From: Thermoproteota archaeon
Lineage (GTDB): Archaea; Korarchaeota; Korarchaeia; Korarchaeales; Korarchaeaceae
Assembly (NCBI GenBank): GCA_026986575.1
Contig: JALSOH010000009.1
Span: 32,001-96,000 of the forward strand
Direction: 5' to 3'
DNA: 64,000 nucleotides
A program made the position numbers and the translations under genes. Below the pieces are notes generated by a model, which ran no database searches, was not told where the DNA came from, and was given only the letters and a program-made list of their open reading frames with translations. Positions 17,748 through 32,560 of this stretch are shown one piece after another. Positions within the stretch are counted from its first letter, which is position 1. Every line of letters starts with the position of its first letter.

Positions 17748-19436
17748 ATGGAACCGAAGACCTTGGAGGAGATACTCAATCACCTGAGGAATTCTGGCCT
17801 TCCCCCCGAGAGGATAAATAAGTTCGTTAACCTGTTGAGGAAGGACGGAGTTCTAGATGTGATTGTGAGGGTCCTCAGCAGGTGCCGATCCTTGGAGGAT
17901 GCGCTTAAGGAGATCTCCAGCCTAGGAGGAATGGCCGATGTCTCTAAGGAGATCTCCCACAAGGTCAGTATAGTCAGGAACTTCGTCCTCACGTCCCTAG
18001 TGAATCTTTCCGTTGACAAGTCCTACATGAGGAGTTTCTTCAGGAAGAAGTCTAAGGCTAAGAAGCTAAGAGAGATACTTGTATCTACCGAGGAGGAGCT
18101 TAAGGAGACAGAGGCTCGTCTCTTAGAAGCCGTGAGGGGTGTACTCCTCAAGACCCTAGAATCCCTTGAGATCAGGGATGGAACACTCAAGGCTGAGATA
18201 GAAGGAATAAAAAGCCTTCAGGATCTAGAGATAGCCAAGAAAATTTGGAATAAGATTAAGCCCGAGTTAGAAAGGGCTGTGGATGGGACCAAGTCTCAAG
18301 GCCAAGTGAGAAGGGGCGAGGAGGCCGTGCTGATAACAGACGATTTACTCAACGAGATACTCGAAGCCTTGGCGAGGATGGAAGACAACAGGAAGGAGCT
18401 AGAGCTGAGAGGGTGCACCTTCCTCCTCCTCTCTGAGGTATCATCCCTCAAGGATCAGATCCTAAGCTGGCTCTCTTCTAACTTCGGGAAGGAGTCTTAC
18501 GGGGTAACTAGTCTCCTTAAGATAATAAGAAGGCTATCCGACGACTCGGAAACCCTCCTCTCTACTTCCATTAGACTGCTGAACTTGAGGTCCGAGCTTG
18601 AGGCGGTCAAGAGGGAGGTCTTGGATAAGATCAGCCGGAAGATGCCCCATCTCACGGAGGCCATATCGATGATAGGACTGAGCTCACCGAGGCTCCCCTG
18701 CATCATCTCCATGCCCGAGGAGATAGCCAGCCTGAGGTACGAGGTTTCAAGGCTTGGAGACACGGTGAATGCCCTCAAAGAGCTCAGCAGCGAGCTGGAT
18801 CACTTCACTGACGAGATCAAGTTCCAGCCGGAGAAGCTGTCCTACAGAACAGAGTCCGACTTCCTGAAGAGCCTAATAGAGACTCTCAGGGCCTTCAGAC
18901 TCTCTAGAGGACTCCCAAGCACGGCTTACTCTCTACCAGGTCTAATGGAGGAGCTGCTCTCCCTCTATCCGAGATGGAGGGAGTACGTGAAAGAACAACT
19001 GGAGGAAAAGGGCTACCTTGAGATAGGGGAACTCTCATTCATACCGGAGATGTGGAGAGAGTGGTTCCTTTCTAACTTGGAGGAGGAGGGGCTTACCACA
19101 ATCTCCGATGGGAAGATACTCCCCAGAGCTCCCAGTTCCGAACTAAGAAAGCTCAGAATGAAATTCGAGTTCCTGAAGGACACCTACGAGGACATGAAAC
19201 CCATATTCCAGAAGGCGGGGATAAGCGAGCAATACTTAAACTCCTTGGAGAGGAAGCTAGCCCTCCTGATGGATCCCAACTATGGGGGTGAAGATAGAGA
19301 GAAGCTGCAAAGGGAGGTTGAGGAAGGCATAGAAAGGGCCCTGAACGTTCTCAAGGGTGGTGGGGTGCCCGATGAGAAAGATGAGACTGGTGGTGATGGG
19401 CCCGCACCAAGCTGGCAAGTCCACCTTGATTCATAG
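17748..19436 (+). CDS. Long coiled-coil protein with probable C-terminal winged-helix domain
   Basis: 562 aa helical; 'YPRWREYVKEQLEEKGYLEIGELSFIPEMWREWFLSNLEEEGLTTISDGKI' resembles a wH module; overlaps the GTPase start. Confidence 0.65.
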   Translation: MEPKTLEEILNHLRNSGLPPERINKFVNLLRKDGVLDVIVRVLSRCRSLEDALKEISSLGGMADVSKEISHKVSIVRNFVLTSLVNLSVDKSYMRSFFRKKSKAKKLREILVSTEEELKETEARLLEAVRGVLLKTLESLEIRDGTLKAEIEGIKSLQDLEIAKKIWNKIKPELERAVDGTKSQGQVRRGEEAVLITDDLLNEILEALARMEDNRKELELRGCTFLLLSEVSSLKDQILSWLSSNFGKESYGVTSLLKIIRRLSDDSETLLSTSIRLLNLRSELEAVKREVLDKISRKMPHLTEAISMIGLSSPRLPCIISMPEEIASLRYEVSRLGDTVNALKELSSELDHFTDEIKFQPEKLSYRTESDFLKSLIETLRAFRLSRGLPSTAYSLPGLMEELLSLYPRWREYVKEQLEEKGYLEIGELSFIPEMWREWFLSNLEEEGLTTISDGKILPRAPSSELRKLRMKFEFLKDTYEDMKPIFQKAGISEQYLNSLERKLALLMDPNYGGEDREKLQREVEEGIERALNVLKGGGVPDEKDETGGDGPAPSWQVHLDS

Positions 19437-20016
19437 GCTCGATCCTTGGGCCGTCAGGATGGACTACTCCAAGGGCACCTTCTCAACCACCGTTGGCTTC
19501 GACTACGGCATAGTCCTCTGGGACGCTACTGAGGACAGGATATACAGGAGGGATCAGATAGATCTCGTGGACCCCTCGAACGAGATATGGAAGGTCACCA
19601 TAACCGGAACTCCGGGACAGATAGCCTTCGCCCCTGTGAGGAAGGTGCTGGCTAAGGGTAAGGATGGGGTGATGCTCGTGATCGACAGCGCACGTCCAGT
19701 TCAGATGGTCTACGCGTTGAGCCAGTATCAGGAGGCGAGGGAGTCTGCTGGTTCCGTGCCTCTCATAATACTCGCTAATAAGCAAGACCTTCCACATGCT
19801 AAGAGTGCCGAGACGATAGCCTCCCTCTTGGGCATAAGGTGCAGAGTCGTCCCGATATCCGCGCTGAAGGGGACCAATGTGGAGGAAAGCTTTCTCCAGT
19901 TTCTCAAGGAGGTAAGGAGAAGCATCCTCGCTAAGTCCATATCGGAGAGATTGGCCGAGAGAAAGGAGTCAAGGTGGATATCTTGGATGAGAAGAAAGCT
20001 AGCATCATCCGTTTGA
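19372..20016 (+). CDS. MglA/CvnD-type small GTPase (copy A)
   Basis: G1 GPHQAGKST, G2 TTVGFDYG, G3 GTPGQ (no Asp, as in MglA-type GTPases), G4 NKQD, G5 SALKG. Confidence 0.85.
   Translation: MRKMRLVVMGPHQAGKSTLIHRLDPWAVRMDYSKGTFSTTVGFDYGIVLWDATEDRIYRRDQIDLVDPSNEIWKVTITGTPGQIAFAPVRKVLAKGKDGVMLVIDSARPVQMVYALSQYQEARESAGSVPLIILANKQDLPHAKSAETIASLLGIRCRVVPISALKGTNVEESFLQFLKEVRRSILAKSISERLAERKESRWISWMRRKLASSV
19435..19628 (+). repeat. 194-bp perfect direct repeat, copy 1 (inside GTPase A)
   Basis: Base-by-base identical to 32021-32214 (aggctcgatccttggg...ggacagatagcctt). Confidence 0.95.
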
Positions 20017-20546
20017 GGGCTGACCTTTCTTTTAGACCCAAACCCAAATGCACGCTTACCTCCTCGGGTTACCGCGTCGAGGTGCTACCGATGGGATGTT
20101 CCTCTACCTGCGCCTCAATAATGATGGTCTCCTCCCTACCTACCCTCCGTCCCGAGGTCAGATTGATCGTCTGCGAAGAGGCGATCTCCATCAAATTGAG
20201 TGGTGTCCCGATACCCAAATCAAACCCTATCCTCATAGTACACAACAGATGCGACTTGGAGCTCGGCGGGAGGACGCTCGTGCTTCCCTGTGGGGAGGGG
20301 GCCCTCCCCACCTACTTGGAGGTCAGTAGCGTTAGAGAGGAGATGCAGGAAATAGGTCTCAATTTAAGGGGAAAGGTACTCTACAAAGGCGATCTCTCGA
20401 TATACCTCCTTCAACTGCCCACCGGAGGAGAGTTAATAGCAGGAGCAGGAGGTTCGATCATATTCAACCCTGGCAGCTACCTACTGATCACTGAGGCAGG
20501 AAGATCTAGACTCAAAGTAGATGGGGAAGAACTGATCCTCCCCTGA
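19974..20546 (+). CDS. Hypothetical beta-rich protein
   Basis: 190-aa ORF overlapping the GTPase A end and converging on the pilin operon; no family recognised. Confidence 0.55.
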   Translation: MDILDEKKASIIRLRADLSFRPKPKCTLTSSGYRVEVLPMGCSSTCASIMMVSSLPTLRPEVRLIVCEEAISIKLSGVPIPKSNPILIVHNRCDLELGGRTLVLPCGEGALPTYLEVSSVREEMQEIGLNLRGKVLYKGDLSIYLLQLPTGGELIAGAGGSIIFNPGSYLLITEAGRSRLKVDGEELILP

Positions 20547-31927: not shown

Positions 31928-31957
31928 TAGAGATCTAGAGAGCTGGAGGGCCCCGCC

Positions 31958-32560
31958 ATGAAGAAGATGAAGATCGTGGTGATAGGACCCCATCAGGCCG
32001 GTAAATCGACGCTGATAAGGAGGCTCGATCCTTGGGCCGTCAGGATGGACTACTCCAAGGGCACCTTCTCAACCACCGTTGGCTTCGACTACGGCATAGT
32101 CCTCTGGGACGCTACTGAGGACAGGATATACAGGAGGGATCAGATAGATCTCGTGGACCCCTCGAACGAGATATGGAAGGTCACCATAACCGGAACTCCG
32201 GGACAGATAGCCTTTTCAGGAGCTAGGAAAGCCTTATTGAGGGGTAAGAACGCTGTCATACTTCTGATAGATGCCACTCAACCTGCTCATCTAGTTTATG
32301 CCATGGAGCAGTATCAAGAAGCTAAGGAAGTCTTGGGATCCGGATTTCCCATGGTTATTTTCTCTAATAAGCACGACCTCCCAATAGCCAGAGACCCCAA
32401 GCAGATGGTACCCCTGCTGGGAATAAGAGCAGATGTTTGGGAGATCTCGGCACTTAAAGGGAGTAACGTGGAACGAGCTTTTAAGAGTTTTCTCGGGAAG
32501 GTCCGGAGGTATCTCATACTTGAATCGGTCACCGAGATCGTAGGTAGACGCTGGTTATGA
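31958..32560 (+). CDS. MglA/CvnD-type small GTPase (copy B)
   Basis: GPHQAGKST, TTVGFDYG, GTPGQ, NKHD, SALKG; paralog of 19372-20016. Confidence 0.85.
   Translation: MKKMKIVVIGPHQAGKSTLIRRLDPWAVRMDYSKGTFSTTVGFDYGIVLWDATEDRIYRRDQIDLVDPSNEIWKVTITGTPGQIAFSGARKALLRGKNAVILLIDATQPAHLVYAMEQYQEAKEVLGSGFPMVIFSNKHDLPIARDPKQMVPLLGIRADVWEISALKGSNVERAFKSFLGKVRRYLILESVTEIVGRRWL
32021..32214 (+). repeat. 194-bp perfect direct repeat, copy 2 (inside GTPase B)
   Basis: Identical to 19435-19628. Confidence 0.95.

Follow-up and report, generated by a model that had tools for sequence, protein, structure and literature searches.

Evidence for recurrent, region-limited gene conversion between two MglA-family GTPase genes that flank a type IV pilus-like gene cluster in a korarchaeon

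Gene conversion that homogenises one domain of a pair of paralogs is known from archaea. The mtrA-1 and mtrA-2 genes of Methanococcales and Methanomicrobiales are described as a case of long-lasting, domain-limited conversion (PMC4632066), and recurrent concerted evolution has been reported for 26 prokaryotic genes (PMC6053082); the words GTPase, GTP-binding, pilus, pilin, partial, and Korarchae are all absent from the latter text. The small GTPases MglA and SofG of bacteria are described as positioning PilB and PilT (PMC4316618). According to the same source, MglA groups 2–5 share the motif GTPGQ and carry a threonine at the site of the group 1 arginine finger; one group 4 MglA was present in the sole korarchaeal genome then known, and no conserved neighbours of the archaeal group 4 mglA genes were found in that 2015 survey. 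Gene conversion is not mentioned in PMC4316618. The present analysis concerns a 64,000-nucleotide stretch (hereafter, the window) covering positions 32,001 to 96,000 of contig JALSOH010000009.1 from GenBank assembly GCA_026986575.1, a Thermoproteota archaeon assigned to the Korarchaeota in GTDB. Within it, two genes for MglA-family GTPases, A and B, bracket a type IV pilus-like gene cluster and share a segment of perfect nucleotide identity.

The identical segment spans 194 nt, and pairwise alignment and the raw sequence agree that the two copies match exactly, in direct orientation, with a spacing of 12,586 bp (Table 1). A repeat search of the window returns a wider two-copy direct repeat of 271 nt at 90% identity (19358–19628 and 31944–32214). 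The exact repeat is bounded on the 5′ side by T at 19434 versus G at 32020 and on the 3′ side by C at 19629 versus T at 32215. In the alignment of the two coding sequences, 194 of 194 positions are identical in the tract, against 42 of 63 (67%) in the 5′ part and 180 of 334 (54%) in the 3′ part. The peptide GPHQAGKST of the G1 motif, just 5′ of the tract, is the same in both proteins, yet the third base differs in 9 of its 9 codons. A first-pass annotation, made from the sequence alone, had reported the exact repeat, the divergence outside it, the different synonymous codons of the G1 peptide, and the bracketing of the pilus locus, and all four hold: the copies enclose everything between 20.0 and 31.9 kb. 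The favored reading, to which a probability of about 0.85 is assigned, is that the tract reflects recurrent, region-limited gene conversion between A and B and not one event.

The genome from which the window is taken (G000; 1.91 Mb in 11 contigs, 99.7% complete) contains the 194-mer exactly twice and encodes two copies of the GTPase, which are 68% identical overall. Chance is excluded as the source of the identity because, in 10,000 permutations of the columns of the A/B alignment, the longest identical run never exceeded 40 and a run of 194 was reached in 0. An assembly artefact calls for closer inspection, in that a collapsed or chimeric assembly or polishing consensus could have given A and B a false identity across 194 bp. 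The genome was probably assembled from a metagenome, as suggested by its 11 contigs and by relatives that are metagenome-assembled genomes from vents, and common k-mer sizes are shorter than 194 bp. Four public sequencing runs cover the region, all in the form of Logan contigs, which drop rare variants. In the first of these (X1), the repeat appears as its own record of exactly 194 letters at a depth of 32.5, and the four flanking records, with depths of 16.5, 15.4, 13.6, and 15.9, end or begin 30 nt within the repeat, at 19464, 19599, 32050, and 32185. A k = 31 graph is expected to yield this pattern when an exact repeat is truly present in two copies and its four flanks all differ. X1 possibly stems from the source sample, in which case it provides an independent assembly but not an independent sample. 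A second run (X2), from another study and a slightly different strain, breaks at these four positions as well. In X2 the repeat is represented at a depth of 26.1, short of twice the flank depth, and carries an A>T change at 32063; a strain mixture is one candidate cause of both. Since X1 yields a 194-nt piece at double depth and both runs break at its borders, the repeat is not an artefact of assembly, and the relatives show a like pattern in which shorter identical A/B runs sit within single contigs. An artefactual origin is, on this evidence, exceedingly unlikely.

The recurrence of the pattern is seen in related genomes. With the B protein as query (E ≤ 1e-10), a match is found in 19 of 41 related genomes and in 16 of the 20 members of the genus other than G000; the genus comprises 21 genomes, and a genus search returned the same set. 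Orthologs of A are present in most of the genus, and most of its species have a single gene, of the A type. Full-length A and B occur together in 4 of the 21 genomes, namely, G000, G020, G011, and G007. The arrangement of A, pilus cluster, membrane protein, and B is kept in G020 and G011, where contig breaks fall inside the cluster and not at the repeat; the contigs of G007 agree with this layout but are too short to show it. In G005 and G009, the contigs run from A into the beginning of the pilus cluster and end there; in the complete or near-complete genomes G012 and G015, the conserved gene cassette around A is present, but A has no pilus gene after it, and B was not found. Contig breaks within the gene were also checked for further repeats: the gene of G010 is split with its middle missing, the two pieces in G008 overlap, and G019 was checked as well, all being uninformative. 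A metagenome scan yielded no new A/B pair and close relatives at 2 of 15 loci. Three database proteins (P0004–P0006) show that B is present in further species.

The codon alignment holds 17 of 26 matches, after removal of nine that were fragments or at most 41% identical (L017–L022, L026–L028), and the trees hold 14 of these 17 rows, with G014, G001, and G016 omitted as near-duplicates of outgroup rows. Outside the tract, sequences cluster with their own paralog: the 3′-part tree unites the B copies in a clade (support of 100/99) and places the A copies with G005 and G009, two single-copy relatives, so that the duplication is old. The tract behaves differently. Its A/B identity is 175/194, 170/194, and 168/194 in G020, G011, and G007, respectively, compared with 54–63% in the 3′ part. 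Identical A/B runs in these genomes measure at most 106 nt (G020), 76 nt (G011), and 83 plus 44 nt (G007), all of which lie inside the tract of G000, and runs of 106, 76, and 83 nt were reached by 0 of 10,000 permutations. Across the eight sequences, the tract has 16 sites at which A equals B in every genome yet differs among genomes, and 0 fixed A/B differences; the corresponding counts are 4 and 29 in the 3′ part and 0 and 3 in the 5′ part. Mismatches between A and B in the tract number 0 in G000, 24 in G011, and 26 in G007, versus 26–47 to orthologs. The tract tree joins A and B of the same genome (identical in G000, support of 94/94 in G011 and 92/91 in G007), and a tree in which monophyly of B is enforced is rejected by the approximately unbiased test (p 0.012).

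These data bear on the alternative that one recent conversion took place in G000 only and that the raised A/B similarity of the relatives results from purifying selection. The segment is indeed the best conserved across the genus, the A/B tract differences of the relatives (19–26 of 194) are not far below the ortholog differences (14–47), and the position of G020 in the tract tree is not resolved. Lineage-specific synonymous variants common to A and B of one genome, however, cannot arise from selection on amino acids, and the contrast of 16 such sites and 0 fixed differences in the tract with 4 and 29 in the 3′ part, the runs of 76–106 nt that beat all permutations, the pairing by genome in G011 and G007, and the rejection of B monophyly all speak against it, making this alternative clearly improbable. 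A single ancestral conversion cannot make variants that are specific to a lineage and common to both copies; these therefore imply at least 3–4 separate events. For G000 itself, recent conversion is the only reading that fits 0 of 194 differences between the paralogs versus 14–15 of 194 between its genes and the orthologs of the nearest species, G020. The earlier proposal of recent gene conversion is thus confirmed and extends to recurrence over the same segment in at least three further lineages.

The two proteins have the size of MglA, being single-domain Ras-superfamily GTPases of no more than 240 residues. Pfam matches A and B to Ras (E values of 6.1e-11 and 4.8e-11) and to Arf (4.4e-11 and 1.5e-6), and the small_GTP model TIGR00231 matches above its cut-off. 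For A, alternative starts are available at GTG 19357 and ATG 19381. Its motifs read GPHQAGKST, STTVGFD, GTPGQ, and NKQD. In both proteins, the G3 motif is GTPGQ and lacks the conserved aspartate, as in groups 2–5; among the 17 aligned sequences, T80, P81, G82, and Q83 are invariant and G79 is nearly so. The G2 motif STTVGFD has two threonines in place of the group 1 arginine finger (T40 invariant, T39 nearly so), and the G4 motif [NT]KxD is represented by NKQD in A and NKHD in B, with N137, K138, and D140 invariant. Sequence and fold searches fail to separate A and B from Arf, Rab, or Ras: the match to the MglA structure 3t12 in the PDB (E 7.3e-4) is weaker than that to an Arf-like protein (2.8e-7), and Foldseek retrieves a Ras/Rab/MglA fold in which MglA 6h17 stands at rank 32 among at least 500 matches, with a root-mean-square deviation of 3.6. 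The published motifs do separate them, and by these motifs, A and B fit the MglA family, groups 2–5, in support of the label of MglA type given in the first-pass annotation. Database homologs are named [quoted passage not shown]. An AlphaFold (AF2) model of B, built from a 17-row alignment, has a predicted local distance difference test (pLDDT) score of 88.6. A-type proteins end in a conserved basic and aromatic tail of approximately 19 residues (19960–20016), which looks like a membrane-binding amphipathic segment; B-type proteins lack this tail.

The tract codes for residues 22–86, which comprise the end of helix 1, G2 with switch I, the β2–β3 interswitch with an insert, and the G3 motif GTPGQ. 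In the model of B, its elements are the end of helix 1, an extra strand (28–33), β2 (40–51), the insert with a short helix (52–71), β3 (72–79), and G3, so that the claim of a tract spanning switch I, interswitch, and G3 is borne out by sequence and model alike. At the 3′ end, identity ends within the codon after GTPGQIA, and the next 11 residues, which form the switch II helix (84–94 in the model), are fixed differently in all A versus all B. The earlier statement that conversion keeps the effector-binding surface identical accordingly stands for switch I, interswitch, and G3 and fails for the switch II helix just after the tract, which is paralog-specific.

The 5′ border coincides with the end of the upstream gene. 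The tract had been said to start at the TAG of this gene, and its open reading frame (ORF), 17748–19436, does terminate with TAG at 19434–19436. The fixed A/B differences of the 5′ part occupy alignment columns 60–62 (CAT in A, AGG in B), and the T of this CAT is the first base of the TAG. Identical A/B runs begin after that T by 1 nt in G000, 10 nt in G020, 3 nt in G011, and 7 nt in G007; the tract boundaries of all four genomes thus put the 5′ border at this stop codon. The base that B carries at this T would remove the stop and extend the upstream ORF by 31 codons.

The tract of G000 is a mosaic at the protein level, being B-like at YRRDQID and A-like at LVD, and it differs from the A tract of G020 at 15 sites and from the B tract of G020 at 14, so that the donor is not assignable. 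Constraint at the nucleotide level provides another conceivable reason for the identity, according to which an embedded RNA element or an antisense ORF (19483–19797) would keep the copies the same; a 104-residue ORF does run antisense within copy A. That ORF, however, extends to 19797, well past the tract and into sequence that B does not share, and orthologs differ at 8–22 synonymous codons among the 65 of the tract, which means that the tract DNA is free to vary. The likelihood of such a constraint is next to negligible.

On the basis of these observations, it is proposed that A and B are old duplicates in direct orientation on either side of the pilus-like cluster in a Korarchaeum-like subclade, and that homologous recombination without crossover (ectopic gene conversion on one chromosome or between chromosome copies) repeatedly copies one gene onto the other. 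Copying would be limited to approximately 200 bp coding for switch I, the interswitch hairpin, and G3, with the latest event in G000 recent enough for 194 bp to be still identical. On the 5′ side, a longer B-to-A tract would destroy the TAG of the upstream gene and lengthen that gene by 32 codons. Beyond the 3′ border, both the switch II helix and the entire C-terminal half are specific to each paralog, and their divergence (approximately 54–63% identity) may be too great to sustain a heteroduplex. High identity within the tract would in turn favor the next conversion event.

As a functional consequence, both GTPases would present the same switch I/interswitch face, probably to a common Roadblock (MglB-like) regulator, and the differences in switch II, the C-terminal half, and the tail may direct them to different effectors or locations. 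It is plausible that conversion keeps this face alike in A and B, perhaps for one regulator. A complex of a Roadblock dimer with GTPase B was modelled, with a score of 0.68 versus 0.03 for the best of 3 controls and 0.01 in one of the 3 runs; the mark, which the model passes, is reached by 116 of 157 solved complexes and by 2 of 215 mismatched pairs. Contact agreement among the runs is 60% or more, and the partner has a pLDDT of at least 79. The modelled interface comprises 28 GTPase residues, 18 of which lie in the tract, 9 in the paralog-specific helix 87–97, and 1 at residue 5.

Several points weigh against this account or parts of it. The joining of flank to flank across the 194 bp comes from the submitted assembly and the orthologs and not from the run contigs. 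The four genomes with both full-length genes are all kin and make up the whole sample available, and the count of events derives from lineage-specific variants common to both copies, not from many replicates. Because no part of the protein is better conserved than the tract, purifying selection on amino acids accounts for some of the raised A/B identity (87–90%) in the relatives. G020 departs from the pattern: its A and B differ at 19 tract sites, with only 14–15 to orthologs, and they fail to pair at the unresolved fork of the tract tree. Position is the sole ground for assigning a selective cause to the 5′ border. Moreover, a B-type database protein (P0006) has the A-type histidine at residue 21, indicating that tracts can cross this border in the A-to-B direction. 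Such a crossing costs no stop codon, and the asymmetry would fit selection on the overlapping upstream gene. With respect to the regulator, one run of the complex model fell to 0.01, and B alone was modelled, not A; because an MglA–MglB complex has been solved, the pass may come from likeness or memory. In addition, the Roadblock gene shares an operon with the Arf-like GTPase gene, and the true partner of Roadblock may be the Arf-like protein.

The first-pass annotation further proposed a possible piliation switch, in which recombination between the copies would remove the pilus locus as a 12.6-kb circle, or double it, with an in-frame chimeric GTPase left behind. Piliated and non-piliated subpopulations would be the outcome. 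An identity of 194 bp is an ample substrate for homologous recombination, the perfect direct repeats are in the same codon phase, and all pilus genes lie between them. The in-frame chimera is geometrically possible, given that both tracts begin at codon 22. No joint is seen in the four runs, although their contigs drop rare forms, and no integrase or recombinase domain was detected among 22 ORFs in 14,214–34,268 (Pfam; 10 rescanned at E up to 5). A deletion scar, with the upstream gene, chimera, and downstream gene in succession, occurs in 0 of 21 genus genomes, and the flanked layout is kept in both relatives with long enough contigs. Within the locus, contig depths are 15.4 and 13.6 versus 16.5 and 15.9 in the flanks for X1, and approximately 17–19 versus 20.7 and 19.7 for X2, per-contig figures that cannot rank the parts. 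An excised circle without a replication origin would be lost, making excision a one-way loss rather than a switch, and conversion without crossover explains all that is observed. Excision as a piliation switch is thus unsupported, though not refuted, and is considered very improbable. A broader proposal is that A, B, and the single adjacent Roadblock protein constitute an archaeal polarity or assembly switch of the MglA/MglB type for the flanked pilus machine, that conversion keeps the split paralogs compatible with the regulator, and, more boldly, that an occasional crossover between the tracts deletes or amplifies the pilus segment and produces heterogeneity in piliation. This combination is speculative and rather unlikely as a whole.

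The cluster between the GTPase genes is termed type IV pilus-like, a label that is well founded for its ATPase and probable for the remaining genes. NCBIfam models for BasE and FlaI match the ATPase below their cut-offs. The platform candidate shares 231 of 256 features with archaeal T2SSF in the protein atlas (score 0.97) and has no match to Pfam T2SSF up to E 5. Six ORFs of the cluster start with a short polar leader and a hydrophobic helix, and one has a weak match to Pilin_N (E 0.094). The two LamG proteins are approximately 29% identical to each other and flank the 938-residue protein, which is rich in Cys, His, and Trp; all three may be pilus-associated adhesins. A 32-nt direct repeat of 75% identity (25855 and 29899) lies near the 3′ ends of the LamG genes. 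The strain differences of X2 cluster at 22700–23700, among the small pilin-like genes, and at 31150–31190, at the promoter-side start of 31172–31927, with a 1-nt deletion at 31167; this clustering suggests fast-evolving surface parts. The GC fraction is 0.47–0.55 inside the pilus segment and 0.50–0.59 outside, and base composition does not mark the segment out as foreign. As a possible origin of the segment, a circular element could have inserted into an ancestral GTPase gene; the gene order that follows the single copy in G015 and G012 is unlike that after B and offers no guide on this point.

Table 1. Positions of the conversion tract, the GTPase genes, and surrounding features in the 64,000-nt window.
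Feature	Position	Strand	Remarks
Conversion tract, copy in GTPase A	19435..19628	+	Codons 22–86, last codon partial; exact identity to 32021–32214
Conversion tract, copy in GTPase B	32021..32214	+	Codon phase same as in A
GTPase A, MglA-family small GTPase, 214 aa	19372..20016	+	Start ATG 19372; Pfam Ras/Arf, TIGR00231
GTPase B, paralog of A, 200 aa, short C-terminus	31958..32560	+	Pfam Ras/Arf
Arf-like GTPase, 296 aa, C-terminal extension of ~120 aa	15600..16490	−	Pfam Arf 3.8e-53; conserved in relatives
Roadblock/LC7-like protein, MglB-like candidate regulator	16559..16948	−	PF03259 E 0.0017, 18.5 bits (cut-off 23)
Coiled-coil protein	16945–17688	−	Operon with Arf-like GTPase and Roadblock-like protein; arrangement conserved across the genus
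562-aa protein, no known family	17748..19436	+	Overlaps start of GTPase A; no Pfam/NCBIfam match
190-aa protein, no known family	19974..20546	+	Downstream of A
Type IV pilus-like gene cluster	20549..31014	−	ATPase, platform candidate, small helix proteins, LamG and CarboxypepD_reg proteins
Four small proteins, N-terminal hydrophobic helix	20549–21061, 22655–23161, 23174–23605, 23861–24232	−	
Polytopic platform candidate, 531 aa	21082–22677	−	Nearest atlas clusters archaeal T2SSF
PilB/FlaI-type ATPase	24237–25814	−	PF00437 T2SSE 6.4e-21, 74.8 bits (cut-off 24.9)
Two LamG-domain proteins, N-terminal hydrophobic helix	25822–26970, 29869–31014	−	
938-aa protein, CarboxypepD_reg domain	26980–29796	−	
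Membrane-anchored Thr-rich protein, 251 aa	31172..31927	+	Directly upstream of GTPase B

GTPase A belongs to a conserved cassette. In 8 of 8 relatives, the genes upstream of A encode, on the minus strand, a membrane protein, a small protein, the Arf-like GTPase, the Roadblock-like protein, and the coiled-coil protein and, on the plus strand, the 562-residue protein together with GTPase A; the gene for the 562-residue protein adjoins A in 8 of 8 relatives with the locus examined. The only three Ras-like small GTPases of the genome all have their genes in this stretch, less than 17 kb apart, and one of its three Roadblock-like matches is at this locus. In the single-copy species G015 (L036) and G012 (L039), the gene for the 190-residue protein sits between the Roadblock and coiled-coil genes, and it therefore belongs to the GTPase cassette and not to the pilus cluster. 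G007 (L035, C110 4702–7076) has a second, diverged pair of coiled-coil and 562-residue-protein genes beside the cassette, at 26–29% identity. The Thr-rich membrane protein is conserved upstream of B in G020, G011, and G007, and its gene is probably co-transcribed with that of GTPase B. Just downstream of B on the minus strand (33181–34268) is a BlaI/Penicillinase_R-type repressor (7.4e-22) followed by a membrane protein with an M48 peptidase domain (3.8e-20), a BlaR/BlaI-like sensor–repressor pair of an archaeon. For the archaeal vesiculating GTPases, a family to which the Arf-like GTPase might belong, homologs are described in only 8 Korarchaeota among 970 Thermoproteota genomes (PMC10927574).

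Taken as a whole, partial gene conversion between paralogs is a known kind of event, and the A/B pair is a new instance of it. The instance itself, its border at a stop codon, and the link between an archaeal MglA pair and a pilus-like cluster appear to be undescribed in the literature covered by searches on archaeal MglA, korarchaeal small GTPases, and type IV pili of Korarchaeum. The pair offers a clean natural example of gene conversion confined to one functional face of a protein, with a border set to the nucleotide by the stop codon of an overlapping gene and a pattern that recurs in sister species. For assemblers and annotators, it illustrates that an exact within-genome repeat of 194 bp can be real.

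Direct repeats can mediate the deletion or amplification of genomic islands. The present locus resembles such systems in that perfect direct repeats flank a functional gene cluster and differs from them in that no junction, circle, recombinase, or deletion derivative was observed in the contigs of the four runs, the 22 ORFs, or the genus genomes.

The closest likeness in evolutionary pattern is to mtrA-1/mtrA-2, as these are described in PMC4632066. In both cases, archaeal paralogs of one locus have had one domain homogenised repeatedly in separate lineages, while the rest has diverged. The mtrA genes encode a methyltransferase subunit and are adjacent in one operon, whereas A and B encode signalling GTPases and are 12.6 kb apart around another gene cluster. 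The tract of A and B is, furthermore, only approximately 200 bp long and bounded by the stop codon of an overlapping gene, and its time depth lies within one genus only.

The closest functional likeness is to MglA/MglB, together with SofG, of Myxococcus xanthus and Thermus thermophilus, as far as these are covered in PMC4316618. There, as here, a small Ras-superfamily GTPase without the G3 aspartate is found with a Roadblock-domain protein encoded nearby (a Roadblock-like candidate in the present case, where its dimer is modelled on the switch regions), and the GTPase is tied to a type IV pilus machine through function or genome position. In contrast to group 1 MglA, which has TVPGQ and the arginine, A and B have the motifs of groups 2–5, that is, GTPGQ and TT with no arginine finger. 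Unlike the bacterial systems, the present one belongs to an archaeon, consists of two paralogs with a common converted segment, and is known from protein sequences and models alone. The locus suggests that MglA-family GTPases of archaea are linked in the genome to a Roadblock protein and to a type IV pilus-like machine. Should this module govern where pili are placed or how they are assembled, archaea would have a counterpart of the control of type IV pili by MglA and SofG in bacteria.

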